Shown: piece after piece, positions 8,559 through 40,621 of the stretch | Position numbering within the stretch: position 1 is the stretch's first letter | Layout of the letters: each line of letters begins with the position of its first letter | Origin: Escherichia phage JS98 | Reading direction: 5' to 3' (one strand) | Length of the DNA: 64,000 nt | Sequence record: NC_010105.1 | The notes under the pieces: generated by a model | Database searches by the model: none | The model's input: only the letters and a program-made list of their open reading frames with translations | What the model was told of the DNA's origin: nothing | Program-made: the position numbers and the translations under genes

Positions 8559-8587
8559 ACTATAACACGTGAGGAGAGGAAGTAAAC
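8559..8587 (-). promoter_or_regulatory. early promoter (GTTTAC -35, 17-bp spacer, TATAGT -10)
   Basis: Minus-strand GTGTTTACTTCCTCTCCTCACGTGTTATAGTCTATCC, followed by GAGGAG RBS and a 53-aa ORF. Confidence 0.4.
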
Positions 8588-8588
8588 A

Positions 8589-8906
8589 CTAATCTTCAAT
8601 TAAATCTCGGTCATAGCCAAGTTCAATCAAAAGGGATTTGAAGGCAGGAATATTTTCTATTTTCTTATTATCAACAAAGATTACAGGATAGCGTATAGCT
8701 AAGCTCTTGAAGCCAGCACGTTTGGCCAATGATACTATAAGAGGCTTATCATATACTGCGCCTGACGGCGTCTGGTTAATTACAGGATAGAAAGTATATT
8801 GGATAGAAAGGGAATTTAGGAGCGATAGAACTGCAATGCACCCTGGACAGCGCATGACCGTCTCAGGGATACCGTAAATCTCAATTTTAGTTAACTTTTG
8901 GTCCAC
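8589..8906 (-). CDS. glutaredoxin/NrdH-like redoxin (CPGC active site)
   Basis: KIEIYG beta-strand then CPGC dithiol and C-terminal glutaredoxin-like region; start placed at GTG 8904-8906, 8 nt after an AAGGAG RBS (start uncertain). Confidence 0.5.
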   Translation of the reverse strand: MDQKLTKIEIYGIPETVMRCPGCIAVLSLLNSLSIQYTFYPVINQTPSGAVYDKPLIVSLAKRAGFKSLAIRYPVIFVDNKKIENIPAFKSLLIELGYDRDLIED

Positions 8907-9183
8907 AGGAAATAACTCCTTGGTAGTCCCAAGTTTTGATAACTTCGTCTTCATTAGTTCCATACGGGATGTAAATCTGGATAAGGAACCCAGTATCATC
9001 AAAAGAGAAGTAGACGGTAGGTTTAATACCGTGAATCTCTGAAAGAGCATAGATGTCCTTGAGGTCATCTTCCTTACCGATAAAGAATTCTGGGTTCAGG
9101 TCACAGTCATGGAAGTACCATTCTTGGCCAAACTTGTCCCAAGCCGCCCAATCAGTAGCTACATACTCTTCAAAACGTTTCAT
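8887..9183 (-). CDS. hypothetical protein (98 aa)
   Basis: Intact ORF; 20-nt overlap with glutaredoxin start. Confidence 0.4.
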   Translation of the reverse strand: MKRFEEYVATDWAAWDKFGQEWYFHDCDLNPEFFIGKEDDLKDIYALSEIHGIKPTVYFSFDDTGFLIQIYIPYGTNEDEVIKTWDYQGVISCGPKVN

Positions 9184-9407
9184 TCTTTCACCTTCATCAT
9201 TTTAGAAATAACACTATGAACAGACTGGATTCGTTTTTCGAACTCAGACTCTTCAAGACCCTTTTCAGTACTCAGCGCACCAATCATCACAAACAGCAAT
9301 CCAAATGGGATAACCAGGATTAAAAGGCACACAATAAACAGGACAAATGTAATATTGGCCAGGATATCAGAAGCAGCATTACGAAATTTATTCATACGAT
9401 AGTCCAT
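9180..9407 (-). CDS. small membrane protein (75 aa, one TM helix)
   Basis: Hydrophobic stretch ITFVLFIVCLLILVIPFGLLFVMIGAL. Confidence 0.4.
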   Translation of the reverse strand: MDYRMNKFRNAASDILANITFVLFIVCLLILVIPFGLLFVMIGALSTEKGLEESEFEKRIQSVHSVISKMMKVKE

Positions 9408-9501
9408 GTATTAGTTACAACAAATAACCATTGAGCAGGATACTCAACACCCATGCGCCGGATAATATCATTCATAGATTCGGTTAAGGCGTAAAAATTA
9501 A

Positions 9502-9975
9502 TCATTTAAGCGATTTCCTCAGTTGTTTTTTAAATGAATCAACCATTTGTTTCTTTGTGTCAGATTCATTATAAGTCATTCCATGTGAAAGCATTTCAGC
9601 AATCATTTCTTCCTTACCTAATCTACTGAACTCTTTGGTTTTATCAGGAACGAAATTAGGATGGATATTGTTTTCAGTGTAATCAGATTTCAGATAGACC
9701 AGCAAATTCTCTAACCATTCGAGGTAGTCAACGTTTTGACCTTTAAGACCAGAACGGTTGAACTTATGCTTCATTTGTCCTTCTGCAGCATTGCACAGGT
9801 TACATAGTAAACCACGAACCTTACCAGCTTTTGGCCCGCTCAATTCATGGTCGTGGTCAAGGTGGTTACTTTGAACATCAGGGTTTAATTCACGTTTACA
9901 AATCAAACACTTACCACATTGTGCATCATAAAGTTTTTGTTTTTCTTCTTTGTATAATTTGCCGGTCAACAACAT
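9502..9975 (-). CDS. 49: endonuclease VII (Holliday-junction resolvase) gp49
   Basis: 157 aa; MLLTGKLYKEEKQK.YDAQ.GKCLIC.RELNPDVQ.NHLDHDHEL.GPKAGKVRGLLCNLCNAAEG is essentially T4 endo VII. Confidence 0.93.
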   Translation of the reverse strand: MLLTGKLYKEEKQKLYDAQCGKCLICKRELNPDVQSNHLDHDHELSGPKAGKVRGLLCNLCNAAEGQMKHKFNRSGLKGQNVDYLEWLENLLVYLKSDYTENNIHPNFVPDKTKEFSRLGKEEMIAEMLSHGMTYNESDTKKQMVDSFKKQLRKSLK

Positions 9976-10010
9976 AATAAACCCTTACCATTATTAGATA
10001 AGGGTATTTA

Positions 10011-10196
10011 TTATTTTTCAAATGTGCTATAGAACGAACGGTGCAACCGTTTAAATTGACGAATCATCTTTTTGGTAGGACGAGTATACAATCCCACACA
10101 GGTGGCCATAAACTGGTCAGTAGGGCTTCCTTTGATAAGAAGTTTCCAGACCTTGTCACCGTTTAACTTTTCGGTATAGACTAATGCAGTTTTCAT
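10011..10196 (-). CDS. hypothetical protein (61 aa)
   Basis: Intact ORF. Confidence 0.35.
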   Translation of the reverse strand: MKTALVYTEKLNGDKVWKLLIKGSPTDQFMATCVGLYTRPTKKMIRQFKRLHRSFYSTFEK

Positions 10197-10495
10197 GCGA
10201 CCTCAAATTCATTATCATCGTTAGTCCAAAAACACCAGAATGAAGCTTTAGTATCTTCAAACATTTCTTTAGTGTATTCGTATACCTTACCATTGAATTC
10301 GATAGCAGTTACGCCAATGATTTCAGGATTGCCCCATGGAGAAATCTCCACCTTCAAGATTTTAACTTCAGCACCTTCACAGAGCTCGCCTGACTCAAAA
10401 CCGCGATTGCCGTTTAATTCAGGCCAGTCAACATAATGGTCGACATCTTCTTCAGTAATACGAACAGTTTTACCTTCAAATTCAAATAAATTCAT
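10193..10495 (-). CDS. hypothetical acidic protein (100 aa)
   Basis: Intact ORF. Confidence 0.4.
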   Translation of the reverse strand: MNLFEFEGKTVRITEEDVDHYVDWPELNGNRGFESGELCEGAEVKILKVEISPWGNPEIIGVTAIEFNGKVYEYTKEMFEDTKASFWCFWTNDDNEFEVA

Positions 10496-13146: not shown

Positions 13147-13174
13147 GATATTCTCCTCAGTAGTTGATAAAAGG

Positions 13175-13204
13175 ATTATACTCCATCCGTCCTTGGATGT
13201 AAAC
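13175..13204 (-). promoter_or_regulatory. early promoter (GTTTACA -35, 17-bp spacer, TATAAT -10)
   Basis: Minus-strand GTGTTTACATCCAAGGACGGATGGAGTATAATCC upstream of 12139-13146. Confidence 0.55.
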
Positions 13205-13205
13205 A

Positions 13206-14099
13206 CTATTTTAGAGCTAATAGTGCCGCGCTGAGCTTGTCACGCTGGTTTTCCATATTCTTGATGCGAATCAATACGTCTTGAATGCTCTTTTTCTCAT
13301 CTTCAATCTGACCATTTAAACGGTGGATTGATTCCTGAATGCTATCTGCATAATAGGTCTCAATAGGTTTCATCGTAGGGTTAGTAACAACCAAAGAATT
13401 ATCAGGTTTAATTTTCCAATGATATGGTTTGGAATTGAATGGACTAGGCACAGCAGTGGTTTTGAATTTATCATAGGCTGCATACTGGCCTACGCTGTCA
13501 CATGATACTGCAGAGATACGACGTTCCATTTGTGGGTCCTTTTGTTGGGATTGATAAGGGGCATAAGACAAAAGATATTCACGAGTTAGTTTAACATTAA
13601 AATACACTGCATCGGCTCGCCCAGAACAATCAGCGTATTCATCGGTTGTAACTTTATATGATTCTACGGCCTTAATACGAGTCATTGCTTCTCTGAATAA
13701 GGTTTCGAATGCTTCACGAAGGGCCTTATTACCTTTTGAGGTAGGACGGAAACGAACTTGAATACCGTCAGCCAGAATATTAATGACTAGGTTACGAGCC
13801 GTAAAATTAATACTTTTGATATTAACAGGAACCGTAGAAATACGCCCTGCAGTGGCCAAGAGGTCTTTGATATTAGCCCGCAATGTTGCACCAAACAGGT
13901 GGGCTGGGCAACGGCAATAATCGTTCAAAGAACCGATATAAGTTCCTTTACGGCCTACACCATAAGTATAATTACCATTACAAATATGACCAAAGTCAGC
14001 TAGCCGATCGATAGCGATACGACGAGTCGTGTCATGGTCGTATATAGAGTATTCTTTACGTGTTTTAATGTTCATATTAAAGTCCAAATAATTTTTCAT
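13206..14099 (-). CDS. hypothetical protein (297 aa) with C-terminal coiled coil
   Basis: Intact ORF; no motif recognised. Confidence 0.5.
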   Translation of the reverse strand: MKNYLDFNMNIKTRKEYSIYDHDTTRRIAIDRLADFGHICNGNYTYGVGRKGTYIGSLNDYCRCPAHLFGATLRANIKDLLATAGRISTVPVNIKSINFTARNLVINILADGIQVRFRPTSKGNKALREAFETLFREAMTRIKAVESYKVTTDEYADCSGRADAVYFNVKLTREYLLSYAPYQSQQKDPQMERRISAVSCDSVGQYAAYDKFKTTAVPSPFNSKPYHWKIKPDNSLVVTNPTMKPIETYYADSIQESIHRLNGQIEDEKKSIQDVLIRIKNMENQRDKLSAALLALK

Positions 14100-15259: not shown

Positions 15260-15288
15260 ATTATACCATCCTTGGTATAAAGCGTTTA
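15260..15288 (-). promoter_or_regulatory. candidate extended -10 promoter (TGGTATAAT) inside palindrome TTATACCA-TCCT-TGGTATAA; weak -35
   Basis: Minus-strand CCAAGGATGGTATAATGG upstream of 14377-15222. Confidence 0.3.
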
Positions 15289-15810
15289 TGCGAGAACCGT
15301 CTTTAAACGCTCTTCAAATTTCTGAAGCAGAGCTTGGCGTTCAGCTCGTTGTGATTTGTACTGCTCGATACGACCTGAAGTGAGGGCGTACTGTTCGTTT
15401 ACTGATTCCCGCATGAATTCAGGAATCTCTTTACAAGCTTTGATTTCGTCAAACTTATCAATAACCGCTTGTTGTTCAGCAATCAAGTTATCAAAATAAG
15501 CGATATCTGATTTAATGTTTGCCAGGTCAGATTCAGTAGGCATTAAACGTTTATTACGCTCAGCTTGATAAGCTTGGTTGGTTTCACGACTCCAGTGAAG
15601 AGTACGTTTTTTGTTAGTGTTTTTATAGAGCTCTACAATACCAACTGAATCGATGATAACAATCCAGTTCCAACGGCTTTTGTAAATCTCTCCTCCAGAT
15701 ATGGTAATCTCATTACCACAAGCAACGTCGTTAAAGAACTTGCTTTGTTTTTCAGATTTGAAATTACCATTGTTAAAATTAATCAGTGAAAAAATATCTT
15801 TAGCGTTCAT
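15286..15810 (-). CDS. hypothetical protein (174 aa) with C-terminal coiled coil
   Basis: Intact ORF. Confidence 0.45.
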   Translation of the reverse strand: MNAKDIFSLINFNNGNFKSEKQSKFFNDVACGNEITISGGEIYKSRWNWIVIIDSVGIVELYKNTNKKRTLHWSRETNQAYQAERNKRLMPTESDLANIKSDIAYFDNLIAEQQAVIDKFDEIKACKEIPEFMRESVNEQYALTSGRIEQYKSQRAERQALLQKFEERLKTVLA

Positions 15811-15824
15811 GATAACCTCCAGTA

Positions 15825-15866
15825 GTTGATAGGTCTATAGTATCATGTCTAATGGAGATGTAAACA
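15825..15866 (-). promoter_or_regulatory. conserved early-promoter cassette (PeSL-like): GTTTACA -35, extended -10 TGaTACTAT, conserved AGACCTATCAA downstream
   Basis: Minus-strand GTTTACATCTCCATTAGACATGATACTATAGACCTATCAACTACTGG; one of at least 11 near-identical copies. Confidence 0.55.
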
Positions 15867-15867
15867 A

Positions 15868-16209
15868 CTAATAGAAACTTTTTTCACCGGCTTGCCCACT
15901 AAACCAGGCGGATTGTGTGTTCTCTTTCCGTTGGTGTTTAATACGAATAAGGTATTCGTTCCTGATGGCGCAGAGTTCATCTCTGAAGTCGCCTGCCAAC
16001 TTAACCTGCTTACGGTCTAGATTTATTAAGGCTTGGGTCTTAGCTGCCAAGAGCAGTCTCCTGTAGTCTCCTTCTTCGCAATCCGTTTTATAAACCTTCT
16101 CAGCGAATTTGTGTTTAGATTCATTATCATAGTCTTCAATAGACTGTTTCATGGCATTAGAGTATTTCAACTCTGCTTTTACAAGGTCATAACTAAATTG
16201 TTCAAACAT
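15868..16209 (-). CDS. hypothetical protein (113 aa)
   Basis: Intact ORF. Confidence 0.4.
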   Translation of the reverse strand: MFEQFSYDLVKAELKYSNAMKQSIEDYDNESKHKFAEKVYKTDCEEGDYRRLLLAAKTQALINLDRKQVKLAGDFRDELCAIRNEYLIRIKHQRKENTQSAWFSGQAGEKSFY

Positions 16210-16219: not shown

Positions 16220-17200
16220 TTATTTCAGAAGGGTAACTTCAGCGATTTCGCTCCAGTCATTTTTATCGGTGGCAATGAAGTCCGCCAGATAAAGAGCTGT
16301 ACGTAATGATACGTTACGAAGACGAGATACATTGGCCTTCATCCATGCTAGAGCTTGATAAGTCTCAGCATCAGTCAGACCTCGGTTTTGCATCATATCG
16401 GTGGACAGGATAACGTCTTCAACACGAACCATAATCTCTTCATTCGAGTGAACTCCGAGGTCTAAGTAAACTGAACGAGATACTAAAGCTTGGAGGTGTG
16501 GAGCAAGTTTAGTTCCACGCTCTAATTCACGGTCAATATCAACGTTGGTGATGAACACGATGGTGCCTTCGTATTCGAATTCTTTATCGATATTTTTATC
16601 ATCGAGATAAGAACTTGAAGTGCTCCAGCATACCTTACGTTTCTCACCGGTATCCAATGCCGCTTTCAGAAGGTTCAGGATATCCATGTCAGAGAATACA
16701 TCAACATCATCAATAAGAAGAACACTATTAGGGCCGCGGTTATTCCAAAGTTGCTCGTAAAGACCGATTCCACTAATCTTTCCGTTGATTGATTTATATT
16801 CGATAGTTTCATTTTCGTGGGCATTTTGTAATGCTTTATCCAAAGAGTATGTTTTACCAATACCTGCGGCACCAGAGATGATAAGGGAACGAATTTTACC
16901 ATCGATGATTCCGTTAGTCATCATGTTCATTACTTTAAAACGTTTGTTGATGCGATGTTTCATTTCTTCAGCGGATTCAGTAACCGTTGCAGGTGCTTCA
17001 GCGCCTTCCATTTCAACGTCACATTTGAACACCCATACACCACGTTCAACACCATCAATCTGCACGAATACCTTGCCGTCACCGAGGTGAGCTTCAGATT
17101 CATGAATTTTATTAGGGAACCAGGTTTTACCTGAACTCATGAACGTACCAGAGATTTCATTACCGCGATAGATACCTTTGTTGATTTTGATAGTTAACAT
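16220..17200 (-). CDS. AAA+ family ATPase
   Basis: Walker A GAAGIGKT, Walker B LLIDDVD, sensor-1-like TIVFITN; start at MLTIKINKG (ATG 17198-17200) after GAAGGAG RBS. Confidence 0.6.
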   Translation of the reverse strand: MLTIKINKGIYRGNEISGTFMSSGKTWFPNKIHESEAHLGDGKVFVQIDGVERGVWVFKCDVEMEGAEAPATVTESAEEMKHRINKRFKVMNMMTNGIIDGKIRSLIISGAAGIGKTYSLDKALQNAHENETIEYKSINGKISGIGLYEQLWNNRGPNSVLLIDDVDVFSDMDILNLLKAALDTGEKRKVCWSTSSSYLDDKNIDKEFEYEGTIVFITNVDIDRELERGTKLAPHLQALVSRSVYLDLGVHSNEEIMVRVEDVILSTDMMQNRGLTDAETYQALAWMKANVSRLRNVSLRTALYLADFIATDKNDWSEIAEVTLLK

Positions 17201-17225
17201 TTTATTCTCCTTCACTCAGTAGATT

Positions 17226-17263
17226 TGATAGGTCTATAATAACATGTTTAAAGCAGATGTACA
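17226..17263 (-). promoter_or_regulatory. conserved promoter cassette variant containing TGCTTTA (MotA-box-like) upstream of TATTAT
   Basis: Minus-strand GTGTGTACATCTGCTTTAAACATGTTATTATAGACCTATCAAATC upstream of AAA+ gene. Confidence 0.45.
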
Positions 17264-17266
17264 CAC

Positions 17267-17497
17267 TTATTTTGCAATAATTTCACAGAAGCCATCTTTA
17301 TAGCGGGCCCATGTTTCACCATTTACTGTATAAAGAGCAGCTTTACGGCCATTAGGCATAACAACTTGTTTACCTTTGTTTTTAGTTACAGCTTCAATAA
17401 TTTCGTATTCTTCAGCACGATCAGCTTTAAAGGTATCTTCCAGAGCGATCAAGTTAGTAGTGTAAGAACCGTATTTGTAATTTTTGATAGCGTACAT
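17267..17497 (-). CDS. hypothetical protein (76 aa)
   Basis: Intact ORF. Confidence 0.4.
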   Translation of the reverse strand: MYAIKNYKYGSYTTNLIALEDTFKADRAEEYEIIEAVTKNKGKQVVMPNGRKAALYTVNGETWARYKDGFCEIIAK

Positions 17498-17538
17498 TTT
17501 TATATCTCCGTTTGGTTTAAGTTTTCAGCTCTTTAGCT

Positions 17539-17576
17539 GATAGGTCTATAATAACATGTTTAAAGCAGATGTACAC
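17539..17576 (-). promoter_or_regulatory. conserved promoter cassette variant with TGCTTTA element (near-identical copy of 17226-17263)
   Basis: Minus-strand GTAGTGTACATCTGCTTTAAACATGTTATTATAGACCTATCAGC upstream of 17267-17497. Confidence 0.45.
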
Positions 17577-17591
17577 TACTTTTTTGCACTA

Positions 17592-17618
17592 AACCCAAAA
17601 AAGGCCCGAAGGCCTTTT
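17592..17618 (-). terminator. rho-independent terminator
   Basis: Minus strand: stop codon then AAAAGGCC-TTCG-GGCCTTTT hairpin followed by TTGGGTTT. Confidence 0.6.
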
Positions 17619-20630: not shown

Positions 20631-20649
20631 ACTGTTCTCCTCATTAGTT

Positions 20650-20686
20650 GATAGGTCTATAGTATCACGTTCCTAGAGGATGTAAA
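20650..20686 (-). promoter_or_regulatory. conserved early-promoter cassette (PeSL-like)
   Basis: Minus-strand ATTTACATCCTCTAGGAACGTGATACTATAGACCTATCAACTAATGAGG. Confidence 0.5.
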
Positions 20687-20727
20687 TACTAAAACGAAAA
20701 AAGGTCCCACCGAAGTGAGACCTTTGA

Positions 20728-24759: not shown

Positions 24760-24778
24760 TTTGTAATCTCCTGTAGTT

Positions 24779-24816
24779 GATAGGTCTATAGTACCATGTC
24801 TACAGGAGATGTAAAC
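24779..24816 (-). promoter_or_regulatory. conserved early-promoter cassette (PeSL-like) with inverted repeat TCCTGTAG/CTACAGGA
   Basis: Minus-strand GTTTACATCTCCTGTAGACATGGTACTATAGACCTATCAACTACAGGAG upstream of regB. Confidence 0.55.
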
Positions 24817-24821
24817 TGCTT

Positions 24822-25100
24822 TTAGTATTTTTCTTCGGGTTGGAAAACAGAACGACAGGCCCACATGGAGGCTTCTTTCAAGCGTTCTATTGCCGTACGA
24901 ATCTGGGCGAGACGTTCATGAGTGAGGTCGAATTCTTCATCACTCATTTTATCAACACCTGAGCATGTAAAGGCTTCAACGTATTCTTCTTCTAATGCTT
25001 TAAAGATTAAGCCTAATCGAACTTCAGCATCTTTAATGGCATTCACTTTACTGATTTTATCGTCGGTATGTGGCTTGTAACCCTTGATATCTTCAATCAT
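24822..25100 (-). CDS. hypothetical small protein (92 aa)
   Basis: Intact ORF between denV and regB. Confidence 0.4.
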   Translation of the reverse strand: MIEDIKGYKPHTDDKISKVNAIKDAEVRLGLIFKALEEEYVEAFTCSGVDKMSDEEFDLTHERLAQIRTAIERLKEASMWACRSVFQPEEKY

Positions 25101-26609: not shown

Positions 26610-26651
26610 ATTATTCCTTAAGTTGATAGAAGTATTCTATCACGGATTTAA

Positions 26652-27068
26652 TTAAGCGTAAATAGCCTTGCCGTAGTGTTTGTACCAGGTAGGACGTTGT
26701 GCAATTTTTTCGTCCAAACGAGCTTGTGAAATAGCGATAGAAGCTTCGTGAGGAACATAATCACCACGGAATTCCTGAGGAATATCACTAATGTCCTGGA
26801 CCGTAGTATCCTTGATATTAAAGCCACGTTTTAAACATTCGGCTATAAGCTCGATTTGACGCTTACGTAAAAATTCAAGCTTATCATAAAAGAATGTAAC
26901 GTGGCCTGTACCAAGGATAAAAGTAGGGCTGATTTTAAAATCACGAACACGTTTACCGTTAGCAACATGCTTACGAACTGCACCGAAAACACGTGGTAAT
27001 TCACGATATTCAGCCATTAAGTGTTGGTCAGCCAATTCAGATACTAAGGTAAGGTTGATACGAGTCAT
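26652..27068 (-). CDS. denV: endonuclease V (pyrimidine-dimer DNA glycosylase) DenV
   Basis: 138 aa, [41 protein letters not shown]..., near-identical to T4 DenV. Confidence 0.95.
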
Positions 27069-27086
27069 TTTTAATCTCCTGTAGTT

Positions 27087-27124
27087 GATAGGTCTATAGT
27101 ATCATGCCTACAGGAGAAGTAAAC
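27087..27124 (-). promoter_or_regulatory. conserved early-promoter cassette (PeSL-like); inverted repeat CTCCTGTAG/CTACAGGAG pairs the spacer with the denV RBS
   Basis: Minus-strand AAGTTTACTTCTCCTGTAGGCATGATACTATAGACCTATCAACTACAGGAGATTAAAAATG. Confidence 0.55.
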
Positions 27125-27523
27125 TTATTTGTAAGTTTTCATCCAATTCTTGAACAGAGCTGCAACGTCTTTCTCTTTAACGTTCAATTTAACGTCCAGC
27201 ATTTTGCCACCGGCGGCACGTGTCTGACGAATCTTGGCCGTACCGGTTTCGCCATTCCACTCAACATAATACTGCCCGGTGTTCATAGCGATACCATCGC
27301 CATAGTCTTCGTTCTTAGAAGTAGTGAATGCCAACTTCATGGTCTTAGAGACACGGGCCTGCATGCCTGTCTGCAGAGCGTTACGAACGCGAATAACCTG
27401 AGGAGTGGCCTGGGTTAGGTTCTCGTTCAGTTCTTCGGTGAACTCTTCTGATTCAAACATTGCCAAAAGTTCAGCGGGCGCCGGGATTACAGCTTCGGCG
27501 ATAAATTCATTATAAGTTTTCAT
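27125..27523 (-). CDS. ipII: internal protein II-like
   Basis: MKTYNEFIAEA leader; position between denV and ipIII as in T4. Confidence 0.6.
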   Translation of the reverse strand: MKTYNEFIAEAVIPAPAELLAMFESEEFTEELNENLTQATPQVIRVRNALQTGMQARVSKTMKLAFTTSKNEDYGDGIAMNTGQYYVEWNGETGTAKIRQTRAAGGKMLDVKLNVKEKDVAALFKNWMKTYK

Positions 27524-27563
27524 ATAGGTCCTTTAAAGGTAAATGTGTTTAAGTATAGGCTTA

Positions 27564-28160: not shown

Positions 28161-28209
28161 ACGGGTCCTTCAAATGTAAATATTTAATTAGTCTGTTCAA
28201 GTAACTGTA

Positions 28210-28241
28210 GATATACTATCACAATTCTAGGAGATGTAAAC
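28210..28241 (-). promoter_or_regulatory. early promoter (GTTTACA -35, TGataGTATAT -10) of the conserved family
   Basis: Minus-strand AGTTTACATCTCCTAGAATTGTGATAGTATATC upstream of ipIII. Confidence 0.45.
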
Positions 28242-28246
28242 TGCTT

Positions 28247-28735
28247 TTATCTATAAGCAGCCCAAGTACCTGTTTTAAAGGTGGCAATAACACGCTTGGC
28301 ACGATTCGGGGTTTGCTTGTACCAACGAGACTGCGCCAGGTTAACTGCGGCATCATCCCAACGTTTCTGTTGGAGCATACGCAGAGAGTTGGTAAATCCT
28401 GCTACACCAGCTTCGCCCATTTGGAAGACCATATTAATCAATGCGCAACGACGAACTTCGTCCAACACATCATAAACCGGTTTCAATTTAGGATTGCGCA
28501 TTATAGCTCTACGAGCATTTTCCACTGAACGATTAAAGAGCTGTTCAGCTTCAGCCATAGTAATACGACCATTACAAACTCGACCCATAAGCTTATCAAG
28601 TTCAGCGCGAGCAACATCTTTAGATGGGTTCTTGGTAACTAACTGGCCTATACCAATAGTCCAATAACCTTCAGTGTCTTTATAAAGATTTAAATCAAGA
28701 CCTTCGTCTTGACGTAACATATCAAAAATATCCAT
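28247..28735 (-). CDS. e: lysozyme (endolysin) gpe
   Basis: 162 aa; [32 protein letters not shown]...; catalytic Glu11/Asp20 context conserved; colinear with T4 lysozyme. Confidence 0.95.
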
Positions 28736-30729: not shown

Positions 30730-30942
30730 TTACTTTTTGTTGAAAAAGTACATTTTACCTTTAGGGGATAAGGATACACGAAGTGCGTTACCGATACCAA
30801 CTGAACATTTAACCAGGTCAGCAGATTTCAATTCACCAAATGCTTGACGAAGGTCACCGTCACGAGTGTTAACCATCAGGCATTTAGCACCAGCTGCACG
30901 AACTTCGTTTAACATGTTGATTGCTTGGTTAGAAAGTTTCAT
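30730..30942 (-). CDS. hypothetical protein (70 aa)
   Basis: Start at MKLSNQAIN (ATG 30940-30942) after GGAGAA RBS; ORF-track N-extension runs through the promoter. Confidence 0.4.
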   Translation of the reverse strand: MKLSNQAINMLNEVRAAGAKCLMVNTRDGDLRQAFGELKSADLVKCSVGIGNALRVSLSPKGKMYFFNKK

Positions 30943-30970
30943 TTTATTCTCCATTTCACTCTGTTGTTTT

Positions 30971-31008
30971 GATAGGTCTATAGTATCACACCTATAGACC
31001 TTGTATAC
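30971..31008 (-). promoter_or_regulatory. conserved early-promoter cassette (PeSL-like)
   Basis: Minus-strand GTATACAAGGTCTATAGGTGTGATACTATAGACCTATCAAAACAACAG. Confidence 0.5.
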
Positions 31009-31020
31009 TGTTTTATGCAA

Positions 31021-31980
31021 TTATTTTGTGAAAGGACGAATTAAATGTTGGTTATCTTGGAACCGCTTGATGTAGTCATTTTCACCTAGCGTCTTATACA
31101 TATTCACTACAGCTTGGTAGTTTTCCCAGGCATACTCGCGGAACCAGCCTGAAGTGATTGAGGTACACACTTTCTCAAGAGCCATATAGAAACTTAACGA
31201 TGGTGAAATATTGAAGTCATTAGGAACCTGTGAACGTTCTAGGGCCAACACACAAGTTTCTTCATATACGCCAGCCAGTTTAATAGCTTCAGGCAAAGCT
31301 TCAAACTTCTCGCGTGAGGTCATGACTTCAGAACCGTCTTTCATATAAAAGGTATACGCTGGGCGTCCAGCCAATGCCACAGCTTCATGGATAGAGTCAT
31401 GGTCTAATGTATAAATGGTATCATTAAAGAACGATGATTTGTTTACATCCAATTTAGGATGAGAATAGCTCAACGTTTCTTTCTGGCGTTGCAGCATGAT
31501 TTCTTGGAGCTCTTCATTCAAGGTTACACCTTTATTACGAAGATATTTGATGTGGGACATCGTCTTCAAAAAGAACGGGTTGTTCTTCAAATAACGATGG
31601 CTCATTTTGATGGCCAGACAGATATCAGGTGTGGCCCAATAGAAACCCGTAAGACGGTCCTTTTTAATATGATTTTCGGCATATTTCAGGAGACGATAAC
31701 TTGAGGTGAAATCTTCGTCCTGAAGCTCGCCGGTGATTTCTCGTACGTTAGTCAGGGCACGGACGATATAAGCTTCAAAATAGGTTTCTTTACCATTGTA
31801 CATACATTTAAAGGCCTGGACATCAGGATTATCCACAGGAACATGGGCACCGAACATCCGAGCTTTAAAGTGATTCCACGAGCCTTGGTCGGCAATAAAA
31901 TCCCAATCAGAATTTTCGATATACTTACTTTCAATCAGACCAGCGTGGTGCAGTGCACGAGAACCAATAACTAGCATCAT
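31021..31980 (-). CDS. hypothetical protein (319 aa) with N-terminal GS...DxD nucleotidyltransferase-like motif
   Basis: GSRALHHAGLIESKYIENSDWDF near N-terminus; GAGGAAAAT RBS. Confidence 0.45.
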   Translation of the reverse strand: MMLVIGSRALHHAGLIESKYIENSDWDFIADQGSWNHFKARMFGAHVPVDNPDVQAFKCMYNGKETYFEAYIVRALTNVREITGELQDEDFTSSYRLLKYAENHIKKDRLTGFYWATPDICLAIKMSHRYLKNNPFFLKTMSHIKYLRNKGVTLNEELQEIMLQRQKETLSYSHPKLDVNKSSFFNDTIYTLDHDSIHEAVALAGRPAYTFYMKDGSEVMTSREKFEALPEAIKLAGVYEETCVLALERSQVPNDFNISPSLSFYMALEKVCTSITSGWFREYAWENYQAVVNMYKTLGENDYIKRFQDNQHLIRPFTK

Positions 31981-32182: not shown

Positions 32183-32422
32183 TTAAATTTCAGCAACGTA
32201 ATCGTTATGCAATTCCCACATATCATCAGAATTATTCTTAATGATAGGAATTATCTCATTAGAGATTTCTTCTGCATAAGGGTCATTGATACAGTGGGCA
32301 TCTTCAAAACGAACACCGTAATCAGACTTCTTATAGGCAAAGCCATAAATCTTTTTAAACTTAGCACGACTAATTCGTACCGGCTCATCAGACTTATCAG
32401 ACAGCGGAGAGTAATACCACAT
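32183..32422 (-). CDS. hypothetical protein (79 aa)
   Basis: Intact ORF. Confidence 0.4.
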   Translation of the reverse strand: MWYYSPLSDKSDEPVRISRAKFKKIYGFAYKKSDYGVRFEDAHCINDPYAEEISNEIIPIIKNNSDDMWELHNDYVAEI

Positions 32423-32466
32423 AGTGTTCTCCTCATGTTGGTGTACGGTAATAGTATCACGGTTTT

Positions 32467-32811
32467 CTAGAGTTGTACATCACTTCTACAATATTCTAAA
32501 AATAATTTATCGTTGTCTACTGTATCCCAACGTCGCCAAGATGGATTCCAGACCAAAGCGTTGTCACCACAATCATTGAGCTTAAAATGGTCATAGTACA
32601 TAGCTATGTGTCTAGTCTCGTCACCAGAGAACCCTAGTATAGGCTCGCCGTGGGTATGATACATATGATGGTGCATTGAGAGGTCGCATTTATAAAACAT
32701 CTCACGTTTACCACGGACGAACAAGAAAGCTTGCCCATTCATATAGAATTCTTTATCCGTTTTCAAAAGGTATTTGAATACTGAATCTTTATGCATAAGT
32801 CCTCCTACCAC
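32467..32811 (-). CDS. hypothetical His-rich protein (114 aa)
   Basis: HHHMYHTH cluster. Confidence 0.4.
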   Translation of the reverse strand: MVGGLMHKDSVFKYLLKTDKEFYMNGQAFLFVRGKREMFYKCDLSMHHHMYHTHGEPILGFSGDETRHIAMYYDHFKLNDCGDNALVWNPSWRRWDTVDNDKLFLEYCRSDVQL

Positions 32812-35854: not shown

Positions 35855-35884
35855 ATTATACCCTGTCCTCTGAGGGTTGTAAAC
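35855..35884 (-). promoter_or_regulatory. early promoter (GTTTACA -35, 17-bp spacer, TATAAT -10) with inverted repeat GAGGAC/GTCCTC around the -10
   Basis: Minus-strand TGTTTACAACCCTCAGAGGACAGGGTATAATGTCCTCATGG. Confidence 0.55.
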
Positions 35885-36286: not shown

Positions 36287-36343
36287 TATGTTCTCCTCAA
36301 ATTACGGGCTCATAATATCTCAATCATGGGCCCATGTAAACAA

Positions 36344-36607
36344 TTATTTCATATTATTGAAATAATCTTCTGCATTAAAATCGTTATCATGGTAAACTTT
36401 GGTAGACGTTTTGGCGTAGCCTTCAGCTGAGAACATATTAATCACAACTTTAATTGTATACCACTGTCCATCTTCGTTACCCATTACTGCATAGGTTTCA
36501 TACACTGGGTGTTCAGGACCGATAACCTTAATATCGTTAACAGTAGCACCAAATTCTTCAGGAACGCATTTCATAAAGAAATTAAACAATTCACCATAAT
36601 TATCCAT
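36344..36607 (-). CDS. hypothetical protein (about 87 aa)
   Basis: Start at MDNYGELF (ATG 36605-36607) after GAAGGAGAG RBS. Confidence 0.4.
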   Translation of the reverse strand: MDNYGELFNFFMKCVPEEFGATVNDIKVIGPEHPVYETYAVMGNEDGQWYTIKVVINMFSAEGYAKTSTKVYHDNDFNAEDYFNNMK

Positions 36608-36633
36608 TTTACTCTCCTTCACACTGTTGTTTT

Positions 36634-36671
36634 GATAGGTCTATAGTATCATGTTTAAAGGAGGTGTAAAC
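36634..36671 (-). promoter_or_regulatory. conserved early-promoter cassette (PeSL-like)
   Basis: Minus-strand GTTTACACCTCCTTTAAACATGATACTATAGACCTATCAAAACAACAG. Confidence 0.5.
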
Positions 36672-36706
36672 AACTTTGTGAAATTATTTTTAGTTTAAAC
36701 CCCCTA

Positions 36707-36728
36707 AAAGGAGACCAAAGTCTCCTTT
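36707..36728 (-). terminator. rho-independent terminator (AAAGGAGAC-CAAA-GTCTCCTTT palindrome)
   Basis: Hairpin immediately after stop of 36731-37348, followed by TTTAGGGGG on minus strand. Confidence 0.5.
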
Positions 36729-36730: not shown

Positions 36731-37348
36731 TTATTTACGGGTCTTTTCGAACTGTGCTGCGTCACCTGCAAGGCGGCGGGCTTGACGAAGTTTGTTATCA
36801 ATTTCTTCGTGCATAGGCTGGGTATACTTAAGGCCTTCAACCGTCAGGTAAAGACGATAGAGGTCCGGGGTATCTAGGTTGTTAATGTGCTGCCCATTAC
36901 GAAGGGCGTTGAATTCTCGAACGAGTTGTTTAGTTTCGGATTCGATTTCAGAAACCAAAGAAGCCAGCTGGTTATATTTTTTAACAATAGTGCTGGTGTC
37001 GAACTTGATTTTAGGTTTAGGAGCTTCTTTTACAGGCTCTGCTTTAGGTGTAGGTTTCGGCGCTGCAACTTTGGTCTGAGCCGCGGGTTTAGAAACAGGA
37101 GCTTTAGCTGGTTTAGCAGGCTTAGTAGAGCCACCGGCTACGATATCTTTAAAAGCTTTGGAAGCTTTGTAATATTCTTTCTGGCTACTAGTATCAAAAC
37201 CATACATATCATAAACGTTTTTAAAGAACTCGGTAGTGGTTTTAGTCCCGGAAATTTTATCATAAGCAGCTTGCCACATATCTTTAGTCATGCGCACGCC
37301 GGCTTCATTCAGAACGCTTTCGTTCAAAAATTCATTGTAAGTTTTCAT
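36731..37348 (-). CDS. internal-protein-like protein (205 aa) with Ala/Pro/Lys-rich linker
   Basis: MKTYNEFLNES capsid-targeting leader; KPAKPAKAPVSKPAAQTK low-complexity segment. Confidence 0.55.
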   Translation of the reverse strand: MKTYNEFLNESVLNEAGVRMTKDMWQAAYDKISGTKTTTEFFKNVYDMYGFDTSSQKEYYKASKAFKDIVAGGSTKPAKPAKAPVSKPAAQTKVAAPKPTPKAEPVKEAPKPKIKFDTSTIVKKYNQLASLVSEIESETKQLVREFNALRNGQHINNLDTPDLYRLYLTVEGLKYTQPMHEEIDNKLRQARRLAGDAAQFEKTRK

Positions 37349-37376
37349 TATTGTTTCCTGTGTTAATTAACTTATC

Positions 37377-37384
37377 TATTTATA
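37377..37384 (-). promoter_or_regulatory. late promoter TATAAATA
   Basis: Minus-strand TATAAATAG about 30 nt upstream of the 36731-37348 ATG. Confidence 0.55.
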
Positions 37385-37385
37385 C

Positions 37386-37412
37386 AAAAAGGCCCAACCT
37401 TTCGGAAGGGCC
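37386..37412 (-). terminator. rho-independent terminator (GGCCC...GGGCC stem followed by T-run)
   Basis: Minus-strand GGCCCTTCCGAAAGGTTGGGCCTTTTTGTATA right after stop of 37418-37972. Confidence 0.6.
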
Positions 37413-37417
37413 GTAAA

Positions 37418-37972
37418 TCAGTTCTTGTAGAACCGGAACGGGTTCACGTGGAAGGCCAACATAGCTTTAGGGATTTTACGAGACAAAAGACTCTTAAGCT
37501 TCCAGCCACAGTACACGCGAAGGTAAAATGTGATTCCGCCGACCTTAAGATAAGGAACTGAAGCAAATACACCCCAGGCGTCATCATTCCACATCCACAA
37601 CCAACCATGGTGAGCTTTATCAGGAGAACCTGATTCTACGTCAGGATTACCACGATAATGGAATTCCGAGCTACAATCACGGCCTAGTTTATGATAAGCA
37701 AAGTTATAAGCTTTATTTCGCCATAGCCAAGCTACTCTCTGGAGATAAACACCACCAGGCATTTTCCTGATTTTAGCCCAACGTTTAATATGACCTTTAT
37801 CGCCGTCAATTGGATTATCGTATGTCATCATCCAATCAAAACCGTATGGCAATTTACCAGTCTTTTTATTATGAAAAGGAACCACAAAAGGCGCAAGGAT
37901 AACGGCTAGAACCATAGAGATAAAATCTAGTGGGACCAACAGAATCCAACTCAAATATTTTAAAAGTTTCAT
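37418..37972 (-). CDS. membrane-anchored Trp-rich protein (184 aa; N-terminal TM helix)
   Basis: N-terminal LKYLSWILLVPLDFISMVLAVILAPFVV; bracketed by two copies of the same promoter/terminator repeat. Confidence 0.5.
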   Translation of the reverse strand: MKLLKYLSWILLVPLDFISMVLAVILAPFVVPFHNKKTGKLPYGFDWMMTYDNPIDGDKGHIKRWAKIRKMPGGVYLQRVAWLWRNKAYNFAYHKLGRDCSSEFHYRGNPDVESGSPDKAHHGWLWMWNDDAWGVFASVPYLKVGGITFYLRVYCGWKLKSLLSRKIPKAMLAFHVNPFRFYKN

Positions 37973-38006: not shown

Positions 38007-38035
38007 CAAAAAAGGCCCAACCTTTCGGAAGGGCC
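38007..38035 (-). terminator. rho-independent terminator closing the tRNA/small-RNA transcription unit
   Basis: Same GGCCCTTCCGAAAGGTTGGGCC hairpin plus T-run as at 37386-37412. Confidence 0.6.
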
Positions 38036-38040
38036 TTTAA

Positions 38041-38205: not shown

Positions 38206-38281
38206 TGGTCGAGACAGTAGGGATCGAACCTACGACCTACGGTTTAGAAGACCGTTGCTCTTCCTTCTGAGCTATGCCTCG
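38206..38281 (-). tRNA. tRNA-Arg (anticodon UCU)
   Basis: Hand-folded cloverleaf: acceptor CGAGGCA/TGTCTCG, D-arm GCTC..GAGC, anticodon loop CTTCTAA, T-arm GTAGG-TTCGATC-CCTAC, encoded CCA. Confidence 0.7.
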
Positions 38282-38285
38282 TATT

Positions 38286-38360
38286 TGGCGGACATGCATG
38301 GATTCGAACCATGGACCAATTGATTAACAGTCAACTGCTCTACCGCTGAGCTACACATCC
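38286..38360 (-). tRNA. tRNA-Asn (anticodon GUU)
   Basis: Hand-folded: acceptor GGATGTG/CATGTCC (two G-U pairs), D-arm GCTC..GAGC, anticodon loop CTGTTAA, T-arm CATGG-TTCGAAT-CCATG, encoded CCA. Confidence 0.65.
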
Positions 38361-38364
38361 AAAT

Positions 38365-38438
38365 TGGTGGCCCTGGGTGGAATCGAACCACCATCCAGCG
38401 ATTATGAGTCGCTCGCTTGACCGTCCAGCTACAGGGCC
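38365..38438 (-). tRNA. tRNA with CAU anticodon (Ile-lysidine type or Met)
   Basis: Hand-folded: acceptor GGCCCTG/CAGGGCC, anticodon stem AGCGA/TCGCT with loop CTCATAA, T-arm GGTGG-TTCGATT-CCACC, encoded CCA; short D-stem. Confidence 0.6.
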
Positions 38439-39325: not shown

Positions 39326-39603
39326 ATATTAATGTAATCAAGTTTAATAGAAGCAATTTTCAAAGGATTTTTAAAGATGTCATATTCGACCAACCCATTT
39401 TCATTTGCCGTATAAAAAGTAAAGTTAACAGAATTATAGCGTTGGCTGTTAACTTTGAGTTTAACATCGCTTGAACTACGGCCAATATTAACCTGTTGAA
39501 CATCAAGCACAGCATCTTTGCCGTAATTTCGAATCAACAACTCAGCTGCAACCTGATCGGATTTATAGCCATTCTCTGGATTAGTAACCTTAACGTATAA
39601 CAT
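39313..39603 (-). CDS. hypothetical protein (96 aa)
   Basis: Intact ORF. Confidence 0.4.
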   Translation of the reverse strand: MLYVKVTNPENGYKSDQVAAELLIRNYGKDAVLDVQQVNIGRSSSDVKLKVNSQRYNSVNFTFYTANENGLVEYDIFKNPLKIASIKLDYINMWPQ

Positions 39604-40005
39604 TTAACCCTCGTCTACAATAGTGTGGGTATTGGCATTAACAATCTGCCACCAGCCAAAACGATTAGAACCGTAAAGAGGCTTATTCTCGTTTTCTTTA
39701 ATGATATCGCGCAGTTCATCTTCAGAGAAGGCTTTAGCGATTAAATCAGTATACCCACCGCGTGGATAATAATTATCACCCGCAAACAAAAGGAAATTTA
39801 CCTTTCCGGAAGGAACATATGCTTCCTTAGGATACTTGTTTCCTGCGTGGTCGACAACTTCAATATAACGGTAAGGAATATCAGTACTTTCAACCCATTG
39901 CCATGCTGCTGCAGGGGATTCAAAAGCATCAACACCTAAACGATTATCTTCATCTTTAGACGGATTATTTTCGTAATCCGCATATACATAATATTCAACG
40001 TTCAT
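39604..40005 (-). CDS. hypothetical protein (133 aa)
   Basis: Intact ORF. Confidence 0.45.
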   Translation of the reverse strand: MNVEYYVYADYENNPSKDEDNRLGVDAFESPAAAWQWVESTDIPYRYIEVVDHAGNKYPKEAYVPSGKVNFLLFAGDNYYPRGGYTDLIAKAFSEDELRDIIKENENKPLYGSNRFGWWQIVNANTHTIVDEG

Positions 40006-40202
40006 TATTCACCTTTAGAGATTTTATCCATAACGAAAGAGATTGAACCAATTAAGAATGCCACTACTAAAGAGATTGTATTCTCGGAAGTTGTAAGCAA
40101 ATCCAACATGAATCCTGCAAACATACTAAAGCCAAAAGCAGTAACGGCGGTCAGTGCAGTAACATTTCTAATTAATTCACAACGTTTCATTTTATTCTCC
40201 AA
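40005..40202 (-). CDS. small membrane protein (65 aa)
   Basis: TM-like VTALTAVTAFGFSMFAGFML and LVVAFLIGSISFV. Confidence 0.4.
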   Translation of the reverse strand: MENKMKRCELIRNVTALTAVTAFGFSMFAGFMLDLLTTSENTISLVVAFLIGSISFVMDKISKGE

Positions 40203-40217
40203 TCACTCATTTGTTTT

Positions 40218-40257
40218 GATAGGGCTATAGTATCATCAACTAAAGCCCGTTGTAAAC
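40218..40257 (-). promoter_or_regulatory. conserved early-promoter cassette (PeSL-like, GGGCT variant)
   Basis: Minus-strand TTGTTTACAACGGGCTTTAGTTGATGATACTATAGCCCTATCAAAACAAATG. Confidence 0.5.
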
Positions 40258-40259
40258 AA

Positions 40260-40553
40260 TTATTTTGTAATTTCTTTGATTTTAGAAACTACTTTATCTT
40301 TGGTAAGACCGGAAAAAGTCTTATATTTTGTAAAGTGGATATCATCACCAAGATTAATATAATATTTCTTTTTAACCGTATTGAATGCTATACTAACAGG
40401 TTTACCATTTACTGTAATAGTAATTTGCTGAGCCTTATCAACATCACCTGAGCCAAAGGCTCTTTTAATATCGCTACTAATATCGGCCATAGCCGCTTTG
40501 TTAATGGAATACAAATCTGTCGATTCTTTGATAAATTCTTGATAAGTTTTCAT
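40260..40553 (-). CDS. ipI: internal protein I-like
   Basis: MKTYQEFIKES capsid-targeting leader, 97 aa, located next to 57B as ipI is in T4. Confidence 0.55.
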   Translation of the reverse strand: MKTYQEFIKESTDLYSINKAAMADISSDIKRAFGSGDVDKAQQITITVNGKPVSIAFNTVKKKYYINLGDDIHFTKYKTFSGLTKDKVVSKIKEITK

Positions 40554-40583
40554 TTTTTGTTTCCGTTAGGTTGGGTTTGTTTT

Positions 40584-40621
40584 GATAGGGCTATAGTATC
40601 ATGCCTATAGACCTTGTAAAC
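40584..40621 (-). promoter_or_regulatory. conserved early-promoter cassette (PeSL-like)
   Basis: Minus-strand GTTTACAAGGTCTATAGGCATGATACTATAGCCCTATCAAAACAAACCC. Confidence 0.5.

Follow-up and report, generated by a model that had tools for sequence, protein, structure and literature searches.

Introduction

Early genes of T4 are read from 'uber' promoters, which combine UP, -35, TGn and -10 elements with extra consensus regions and are used by the unmodified host polymerase (Hinton 2010, PMC2988021). Repeated early promoters that carry a stem-loop, the promoter/stem-loop (PeSL) cassettes, were conceived for phages RB49 and phi1 (Arbiol 2010, PMC2839356), and in the T-even phages PST and T4 they consist of TTTACW-N17-TAYWAT promoters with stem-loops (Comeau, Arbiol & Krisch 2014, PMC4122927). 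Promoter repeats of the internal-protein (IP) locus of T-even phages were reported by Repoila 1994 (EMBO J 13:4181, as cited in PMC2839356 and PMC4122927); Arbiol 2010 calls them T4-early-promoter-based analogues with AT-rich stem-loops, and mentions JS98 in passing only, for PeSL-like sequences near gene 43. Here we analysed a family of near-identical repeats with the anatomy of such early-promoter cassettes in a 64,000-nt stretch of Escherichia phage JS98 (NC_010105.1), which is called the window below and to which all positions refer unless another genome is named.

Two further features of T4 are relevant to these repeats. The T4 genes e, soc, 49 and I-TevI provide documented cases of a promoter placed within the 5' arm of a hairpin that masks the Shine-Dalgarno (SD) sequence (McPheeters et al. 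1986; review PMC3014915, section 29). The strong RegB/S1 cleavage consensus, GGAGRAYARAA in an unstructured initiation region of early mRNA, is known to us as PMC3014915 quotes it from Durand 2006, and the same review states that RegB is inhibited by secondary structure. The cassette type is already described in T4-type phages (Repoila 1994; Arbiol 2010, PMC2839356; Comeau 2014, PMC4122927); our literature search found no description of an early-promoter set for the JS98 group. We conclude that the repeats are most probably the immediate-early sigma-70 promoter cassettes of the genus Dhakavirus, which also serve as recombination joints and, in some copies, carry a hairpin that would mask the ribosome site in read-through RNA.

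Results

Ten near-identical copies precede mutually unrelated genes

The window is T4-type coliphage DNA of the genus Dhakavirus (JS98-group). Its minus strand holds genes 45, 46, 47, 55, nrdC, tk, vs, regB, denV, ip, e, the tRNAs and 57, then 1, 3, 2 and 4, and genes 53 and 5 follow gene 4 on the plus strand. A search with the 21-mer ATGATACTATAGACCTATCAA (up to 3 mismatches) gave 10 matches in the window, 10/10 on the minus strand, and no match at this threshold was present in dinucleotide-preserving shuffles of the window (0/100). The low coordinates of TATAGACCTATCAA, by which the copies are named here, are 15826, 17225, 17537, 20648, 24777, 27085, 30969, 36632, 40216 and 40582. A hidden Markov model (HMM) profile made from these ten copies and run back over the window re-found all of them (E = 3e-9 to 3e-15); it also scored an element at 28211 (E = 7e-5), which has the -35 and the start of the spacer in common with the family and is without AGACCTATCAA, and a divergent relative at 8547 (E = 0.19). 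With an independent repeat finder, the cassettes came out as the largest direct-repeat families in the window (D1-D4). The signature of a -10, four nucleotides and YTATCAR had 15 hits against 1.1 expected and added the diverged members 13164 and 26623. A further diverged member lies at 32451, and the window total is 10 near-identical and 5 diverged copies.

Every copy is located upstream of a start codon, the near-identical ten at 16-45 nt from the ATG. The genes that follow are mutually unrelated: RegB, DenV (Pyr_excise), an AAA-like NTPase (nrdC.10 homologue), an internal-protein-type gene and small open reading frames (ORFs) without a Pfam family. An earlier note on this DNA had described a repeated element, oriented with the genes, upstream of many unrelated early genes, and the ten minus-strand copies and the shuffled controls bear this out. 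Its count of at least 11 near-identical copies and one divergent copy is changed to ten near-identical and two divergent (8547 and 28211), the repeat family itself being confirmed. Its view that the cassettes delimit single-gene modules holds for three intervals (17537 to 17225, 40582 to 40216 and 27085 to 26623), the others holding 2-9 genes. Rfam at gathering thresholds found only three tRNAs in the whole window, and no RNA family overlapped any cassette. The three tRNA genes are neighbours on the minus strand at 38209-38438 (Rfam bit scores 62-71) and are annotated in relatives as Arg, Asn and Met.

Copies beyond the window were counted in a 170,523-bp IMG/VR Dhakavirus genome that is 100% identical to the window over the stretches compared, and at least 8 more strict cassette copies were found there outside the window. 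Genomes of Dhakavirus size contained 12-13 strict-pattern matches each, compared with 1-3 in genomes of T4 size, where matches are few because the T4 spacer is one base longer.

The repeats have the anatomy of T4-type early promoters

From 5' to 3', a cassette comprises an AT-rich UP-like region, -35, spacer, extended -10, discriminator, CTATCAA, leader, SD sequence and ATG. The region from -38 to -60 is UP-like in composition (59-86% AT, compared with 60.7% in the window), and an upstream motif, AAAATAATTTCACAAAG, is common to window and T4 copies. The -35 is GTTTACA, with the variants GTGTACA, GTATACA, ATTTACA and GTTTACT; the spacer is 16 bp long in 9/10 copies and 18 bp at 40216. The extended -10 is TGnTACTAT or TGnTATTAT in 10/10 copies, and with it the -35, TGn and -10 elements agree with those of T4-type early promoters. 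After the -10 comes AGAC (AGCC in two copies), then CTATCAA. The 15- or 17-nt gap after GTTTACA given in the earlier note is to be corrected: the actual arrangement is GTTTACA-N13-TGATAC, and the literal pattern GTTTACA-N14..18-TGATACTATA fits one copy only.

By spacing alone, we infer that transcription starts at the A of ATCAA, 7 nt past the -10 and with T at -1. The predicted +1 positions are 15830, 17229, 17541, 20652, 24781, 27089, 30973, 36636, 40220 and 40586. The T4 GenBank and RefSeq records, inspected for start-site evidence, have no promoter features annotated. Mean pairwise identity was calculated for nine of the ten copies, with 40216 excluded for its longer spacer, and was 92% from TGn to +5, 81% in the -35, 61% in the spacer, 41% in the 22 nt upstream of the -35 and 26% further upstream, which is background. 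Conservation does continue past the -10, as had been claimed, but less of it would be transcribed than was supposed: under the usual spacing rule the discriminator AGACCT stays untranscribed, and the transcript would include only ATCAA.

The leaders, 12-40 nt long, are of two types, CTAC(A/T)GGAG... and AACAACAGAGTGAA(AT)GGAGAATAAAATG. GGAG is present in 9/10 ribosome sites, and the IP-type gene at 40582 has GGAA. The RegB/S1 consensus is matched exactly at 17225, 30969 and 40216, with one mismatch at 20648, 27085 and 36632, and with two at regB, giving 6/10 copies at 0-1 mismatch. MotA-dependent middle promoters were also considered and were rejected, because all copies have a GTTTACA-type -35 in place of the MotA box (a/t)(a/t)(a/t)TGCTT(t/c)A near -30. 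The spacer variant TCTGCTTTAAAC of 17225 and 17537 includes TGCTTTA, but this is centred at about -23, too near the -10 for a MotA box. These results support the identification of the Dhakavirus repeats as predicted early promoters, and the earlier note's assignment stands on this T4-type anatomy and on homologous elements at orthologous genes in T4 and RB69.

Cassettes stand at orthologous junctions in three genera

The window was compared with five Dhakavirus relatives (IME08, MN04, ABTNLsp5, AnYang and Bp7) and with T4 and RB69. All five Dhakavirus relatives have cassettes at the same gene junctions. Homologous elements are present in T4 upstream of nrdC.8, nrdC.10, mobD.5, regB, denV, e.8, trna.4 and ipI (e.g. 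GTTTAC-N15-TGGTACTATACAACTATCAACTAC), and likewise at orthologous genes in RB69. Since homologues occupy the same junctions in Dhakavirus, T4 and RB69, the repeats belong to the T-even early-promoter/PeSL family and are not a new element. As far as these alignments tell, the family is old and its positions are mostly stable.

At nrdC.8, nrdC.10, e.8 and 20648/mobD.5, the window has a 16-bp spacer with AGAC whereas T4 has a 17-bp spacer with ACAA, and RB69 is mixed. Such parallel differences at several orthologous sites suggest homogenisation by recombination, or a lineage-specific optimum. The denV promoter is the only one in T4 that is of the Dhakavirus type, with a 16-bp spacer, AGACC and the same hairpin; at about T4 position 65,378, it matches the consensus of the window copies in full. 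As part of our best overall explanation, we think it likely that the near-identity of the copies reflects shared T-even ancestry combined with homogenisation among paralogues.

Gene modules are lost, transferred and swapped at cassettes

The comparison of relatives revealed the presence/absence polymorphism that the earlier note had suggested looking for, at the 76-aa ORF, the denV module and the IP gene. IME08 and Bp7 are without 17281-17537 (76-aa ORF plus one cassette), and the 54-bp overlap at the junction is equal to the cassette. The single cassette that IME08 and Bp7 have there is a chimera: its upstream flank (nrdC.11 end and terminator) comes from the 17537 copy and its leader from the 17225 copy. 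In MN04 (16304-17059, plus) and AnYang (15304-16062), an opposite-strand gene replaces the 76-aa ORF and one cassette. In the product of the MN04 gene a collagen-like repeat accompanies a tail-needle-knob domain of Sf6 type (Pfam E 5e-32), and the AnYang annotation is 'tail needle knob'; such cargo would not be expected in a T4-type early region.

The DenV proteins of the window and T4 share 97.8% amino acid identity, compared with 32-88% for neighbouring genes (denV with its promoter: window 26652-27149; T4 stretch compared, 36940-37433). When the window, T4, ABTNLsp5 and Bp7 were aligned, homology started exactly at GTTTAC of the -35, with four unrelated upstream flanks, and stopped at the stop codon, after which the next promoter or vs.8 follows. 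MN04, the closest relative, is without denV. This distribution indicates a recent intergeneric transfer of denV as a promoter-plus-gene module.

Rearrangement was also seen among the IP genes. IpIII, a 132-aa ORF and denV are arranged differently in ABTNLsp5/AnYang than in the window, and the junctions lie within GTTTACATCTCCT. The IP gene between 40216 and 40582 (body 40267-40530) is swapped in IME08, ABTNLsp5 and AnYang, and the swap extends from the -35 side of one cassette to the common N-terminal leader; two relatives are without the 69-aa ORF (40633-40842) that lies immediately upstream of 40582. A coding leader of about 40 nt, of the MKTYQEFI type found in T4 internal proteins, opens six minus-strand genes (26573-26612, 27487-27526, 28124-28163, 37319-37361, 40517-40556 and 40806-40845; repeat family D6/D9/D10). 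This leader seems to serve IP modules as their downstream recombination joint, the swap boundary at 40531 lying inside it. Over all five relatives, 10/65 breakpoint clusters fell inside cassette spans, which make up 2.9% of the region (p = 2e-5, about 5-fold enrichment). Indels with junctions inside the repeat, by which PeSLs are recognised, are thus present in this family.

Other repeats also mark module ends. ATGA stop/start overlaps (5-bp microhomology) are the ends of single-ORF indels at 3278/3483, 10196/10491 and 22532/22731, and an indel at 31997/32159 lies at the repeated ribosome site TGAGGAAAATATTATG (repeat family D8: 131, 7381, 15206 and 32145). A 32-bp terminator-like repeat, AAAAAGGCCCAACCTTTCGGAAGGGCC (94% identical copies at 37386-37417 and 38009-38040), flanks the ORF 37418-37972. 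IME08 is without this interval, with a junction overlap of about 90 bp, and ABTNLsp5 is rearranged there; by this alignment the limits of the module are the repeated terminators, not promoters. Taken together, the alignments present the cassettes as the longest among several repeated signals used for module exchange, not as the sole one. Of the PeSL-like shuffling that had been proposed, ORF and module polymorphism was found, but the cassettes are mostly stable at orthologous junctions and not freely mobile.

Most spacers are complementary to leaders or to the -10 region

Five copies fold well beyond shuffles, namely regB (z = -4.2), denV (z = -4.65), 30969 (z = -3.4), 40216 (z = -2.85) and 40582 (z = -2.9). 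Two arrangements were found. In the first, the spacer pairs with the leader and ribosome site, as at regB, where TCTCCTGTAG and CTACAGGAGA form a 10-bp hairpin of -18.3 kcal/mol; denV has the same 10-bp hairpin. In the second, the spacer pairs with the -10/start region and leaves the extended -10 partly in the loop, as at 30969, where the hairpin of AGGTCTATAG and CTATAGACCT encloses the -10; the 3' arm of this arrangement (-10/discriminator) is nearly invariant across the family. A 5' arm placed so as to mask the SD sequence is present at regB, denV, nrdC.8 and 8547 and in the T4/RB69 orthologues.

Spacer/downstream complementarity was significant (p < 0.05) relative to shuffled spacers in 8/18 early promoters, and the Fisher combined value was 5e-9, in which paralogues are non-independent. 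Five variants of a perfectly paired stem occur: ...TGTAG/CTACA..., ...TCTAG/CTAGA..., ...TCATG/CATGA..., ...AGTAG/CTACT... and ...ATTAG/CTAAT.... In other genera arms of different sequence are likewise complementary, in T4 regB (TCCTCTTGACTG/CAGTTAAGAGGA), T4 nrdC.8 (GTTCCTC/GAGGAAC), RB69 denV (TCCTCCAAG/CTTGGAGGA) and T4 ipI (TGATGAGGTA/TACCTCATCA). Across 82 distinct spacer::leader instances, 58% of cells were paired compared with 50.2±1.1 in shuffled sets, and the covariation score was 0.272 compared with 0.164±0.014, which 0/500 shuffles reached; slid controls gave 0.13-0.18. These results show that the two arms covary.

Intrinsic terminators were considered as an identity for the cassette-internal hairpins and were rejected, since these have AT-rich stems and no U-run and are not flagged by a terminator scan. 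The scan does flag separate hairpins at 17618-17599 and 20725-20700, upstream of 17537 and 20648. An upstream terminator-type hairpin is found in 3/10 copies (17537, 20648 and 36632), the stem-loop lying inside the promoter elsewhere.

Four early-type promoters outside the family were also noted on the minus strand at 7437-7465, 7860-7888, 35855-35883 and 36312-36340 (TTTACA-17-TATAAT/TACAAT/TATTAT, without AGACCTATCAA). Their -10 sits in the loop of a 6-7 bp inverted repeat (7465, 7888, 35883 and 36340), whose arms, GGGACC/GGTCCC, CGATGA/TCATCG, GAGGAC/GTCCTC and GGGCCC/GAGCCC, are mutually unrelated. At denV of IME08 (about 26960-27030) a different promoter was found, and the SD-masking helix GTGTTCTC...GAGAACAC is entirely downstream of the -10. 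This helix would thus occur in the gene's own transcript too; the upstream flank resembles the T4 ipII end.

Individual cassettes and diverged members

All cassettes are on the minus strand. The first (15811..15890) is upstream of the nrdC.8 homologue (15286-15810), with its -35 at 15864-15859, its -10 TACTAT at 15842-15837 and the predicted +1 at 15830 as given above; its spacer TCTCCATTAG forms 9/10 pairs with the leader CTACTGGAGG. The second (17201..17289) precedes the AAA-like NTPase gene homologous to nrdC.10 (16220-17200) and has the -35 GTGTACA, the -10 TATTAT and GGAGAATAAAA in its leader, which is the exact strong RegB/S1 site consensus. It is identical over 39 bp to the third (17498..17618), which is located upstream of the 76-aa ORF (17267-17497) and is preceded by the intrinsic-terminator-like hairpin 17618-17599. 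The fourth (20631..20725) is preceded by the terminator-like hairpin 20725-20700 and followed by a 78-aa ORF (20394-20630); IME08 has the same cassette with a different ORF downstream. The fifth (24760..24841) precedes regB (24301-24759), and IME08 and AnYang have a 209-bp insertion at its upstream edge (24823). The sixth (27069..27149) lies upstream of denV (26652-27068).

The seventh cassette (30943..31033) precedes a 70-aa ORF (30730-30942), and its leader contains the exact RegB/S1 consensus. The eighth (36608..36696) is upstream of the e.8 homologue (36344-36607) and has a terminator-like hairpin just upstream (36707-36728); the point at which ABTNLsp5 and the window diverge is exactly its upstream edge (36683-36691). 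At the ninth (40191..40282), upstream of the trna.4 homologue (40005-40190) and with the 18-bp spacer, an AGCCC variant is matched by a compensating spacer, GGGCT. The tenth (40554..40646) precedes the internal-protein-type gene (40260-40553), whose ribosome site is GGAA rather than GGAG. Within it (40582-40620), the spacer AGGTCTATAG, which is complementary to AGACC, is joined to an AGCCC discriminator as in the neighbour 40216. Relatives read AGACC at this discriminator, and either a point change or a crossover inside the conserved core would account for AGCCC.

Among the diverged members, 8547 (8530..8610) reads TGTTATAGT...CTATCAAC, with a spacer CTCCTCACGTG complementary to the leader CACATGAGGAG. 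Member 28211 (28161..28265) is the putative promoter of the IpIII homologue (27564-28160); it has the family GTTTACATCTCCT and a -10 of TAGTAT, and its span is a recombination junction in relatives. Member 26623 (26610..26690) reads TTTACG-17-TAGAAT-ACTT-CTATCAAC and is upstream of a 99-aa IP-type ORF (26310-26609). The denV module has its 3' boundary at this member, whose -35 overlaps the stop codon of denV. Member 13164 (13147..13230) reads TTTACA-17-TATAAT-CCTT-TTATCAACTAC, upstream of the nrdC.4 homologue, and member 32451 (32423..32505) reads TGTACA-17-TGATACTAT, then TACCGTACACC, upstream of a 79-aa ORF (32183-32422). Unconnected with the family, three tandem 93-nt units (65-72% identical) occupy 60294-60572 on the plus strand, apparently in frame within a structural gene.

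Discussion

If these cassettes work as their anatomy suggests, host RNA polymerase would fire them directly after injection, as is known for T4. RegB would be predicted to cut the GGAG sites, and with the RegB/S1 consensus at 0-1 mismatch in six of ten copies a short burst of expression is therefore expected. Because the cassettes are 40-100 bp of near-identical DNA in direct orientation, they probably also act as homologous-recombination joints, and recombination between them adds, deletes or swaps promoter-plus-gene modules, which is the PeSL idea. RNA reading through from upstream would hold both arms, so that the hairpin would cover the ribosome site, and RNA initiated in the cassette would be without the 5' arm and leave this site open. 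Since RegB is blocked by structure, masked read-through RNA would also escape cleavage.

Several observations weigh against parts of this explanation. Counted by junction, indels are only modestly associated with cassettes (9/12 vs 36/85, odds ratio 4.1, p = 0.06), and other repeats, namely ATGA overlaps and recurring ribosome sites and terminators, are used by most small-ORF indels. The hairpins are weak or absent at 17225, 17537 and 36632, and the SD-masking design is found neither at these three copies nor at those with -10/start pairing; the second arrangement misses the ribosome site, and SD masking is therefore not a universal function. In 24 orthologue clusters, stem changes among close relatives look neutral (G.U 18, A.C 16, other mismatches 19, compensated 1). 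Sense and antisense folding energies are equal (-11.5 vs -11.7 kcal/mol, p = 0.37, 127 instances), and a role in RNA is therefore not separated from one in DNA. Less likely than not, in our view, is a more general proposal, in which covarying complementarity between spacer and leader/ribosome site is a design rule of T-even immediate-early genes, the promoter splitting the hairpin and translation being confined to early transcripts. If it were true, only RNA begun at their own early promoters would allow genes such as regB, denV and nrdC.8 to be translated, or expose them to RegB, and RNA reading through from early or middle promoters further upstream would be translationally silent and resist RegB. 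Expression would then be confined to the first minutes of infection by a sequence-encoded, factor-independent means, and mismatched arms would mark recent recombinant cassettes.

The copies could be strong promoters and nothing else, alike through convergence on, or retention of, an optimal polymerase sequence, with module boundaries nearby since genes begin there and with no special part in recombination. The shared orthologous junctions in three genera, the weak enrichment at junction level and the many indels at other repeats agree with this, as does the fact that T4 early promoters carry consensus beyond the -35 and -10 (PMC2988021). Promoter function alone does not predict a deletion that ends within two cassettes with a 54-bp overlap and leaves a chimeric copy, or denV homology that begins at the -35 exactly below four unrelated flanks. 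Nor does it predict spacer length and discriminator shifting together at four orthologous promoters, or chimeras with mismatched arms, such as 40582 with its AGGTCT spacer and AGCCC, and the nrdC.8 copy of the window, whose spacer is that of another cassette. We regard this explanation as unlikely. Similarly improbable, in our judgement, is that the stem-loops are terminators or attenuators of incoming transcripts and insulate the units rather than mask ribosome sites. One RB49 PeSL stem-loop cut downstream lacZ about as much as rrnB T1 did (Arbiol 2010, PMC2839356), RB49 stem-loops also lie between -35 and -10 or overlap the -10, and most window copies have hairpins; but the stems here are AT-rich (e.g. 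AGGTCTATAG) and are followed by ATCAAAAC or ATTAAAAATG without a U-run, and what the scan flags, upstream of 17537 and 20648, is separate, GC-rich and ends in a T-run.

An action of the inverted repeat in DNA has a rather small chance of being correct. It could form a cruciform or hairpin that exposes the -10 in single-stranded form or draws a structure-specific nuclease or recombinase, or the symmetrical GATA-N9-TATC with the invariant CTATCAA could be the site of a phage factor, for example the agent of early-promoter shut-off, the mechanism of which is stated to be unknown in T4 (PMC2988021, PMC3014915). Strand-symmetric folding energies, a G.U count not above A.C, the complementarity of TGATA in the extended -10 to TATCA at the start site, and the non-family promoters with a -10 in a hairpin loop between unrelated arms would all fit. 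However, no candidate protein was identified; polymerase contacts, the Y-1/R+1 preference and shared ancestry suffice to explain a conserved core, and short AT-rich stems with loops of 8-23 nt extrude poorly. It is barely credible that the repeats are not regulatory DNA but a self-mobilising element, be it a miniature transposon or a target of homing endonucleases. Scattered similar copies, indel association and homing endonuclease genes in relatives could bring it to mind, but all copies are gene-oriented, at fixed start-codon distances and in orthologous positions across genera, no terminal inverted repeats or target-site duplications were seen, and no Rfam family lies at the copies. A transposon-like element was rejected on this anatomy. 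The explanation that we prefer therefore remains that of early-promoter cassettes that double as recombination joints and, in some copies, would mask the ribosome site in read-through RNA.

The work provides a sequence-level catalogue of predicted early promoters for JS98-group phages, which serve phage-therapy work. It also gives explicit examples, most clearly the denV cassette, of promoter-bounded modules that were deleted, swapped or transferred from one T4-type genus to another. Covariation between a promoter's spacer and its own ribosome site, or perhaps its start region, would, if confirmed, explain part of early-gene shut-off. Apart from the covariation and the module examples, the cassettes are an expected feature of a T4-type genome.

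The closest described systems are the T-even PeSLs (PMC4122927), in an account that does not cover Dhakavirus. Like them, the window cassettes have an AT-rich region, a TTTACW...TAYWAT promoter, a stem-loop, an SD sequence and a start codon, occur many times per genome, cluster in plastic early regions and adjoin indels, and the T4 copies at nrdC.8, nrdC.10, regB, denV, e.8, trna.4 and ipI are directly homologous to those in the window. They differ in the 16-bp rather than 17-bp spacer, in AGAC in place of the ACAA of 4/8 T4 copies compared, and in a stem-loop that is mostly inside the promoter, whereas that of PST is described just upstream of it. The RB49/phi1 PeSLs (PMC2839356) are similar in that a repeated early promoter with a stem-loop flanks ORFs, flanking copies recombine to delete or insert, and RB49 stem-loops lie between -35 and -10 or overlap the -10. 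However, RB49 has TTGACA-N17-TATAAT with polyG/polyC stems and no sequence homology with the window, and its terminator activity and mini-circles were shown experimentally, whereas the window cassettes are known from sequence alone. On the sequences compared, the window element stands outside the RB49 family, as its analogue or distant relative.

As far as the repeats of Repoila 1994 are described in the papers that cite them, the locus is the same (denV-ip-e, ipI/57B region), and IP shuffling is likewise bounded by T4-type early promoters, weak AT-rich stem-loops and a shared N-terminal leader; unlike in those descriptions, the window family is also found at non-IP genes (regB, nrdC.8, nrdC.10, e.8, trna.4 and small ORFs). 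The cassettes share an AT-rich UP-like region, GTTTAC, TGn and the -10 with the T4 'uber' promoters (PMC2988021), and differ in the 16-bp spacer and TACTAT-AGAC-CTATCAA that mark them as a lineage-specific variant, whose activity in the window is predicted. As in T4 e, soc, 49 and I-TevI, the 5' arm of the SD-masking helix lies upstream of the predicted start site, so that long read-through RNA would be masked and promoter-proximal RNA open. There, late promoters within the helix delay expression; here, an early promoter takes their place, and the predicted effect is to restrict translation to the cassette's own early transcripts.

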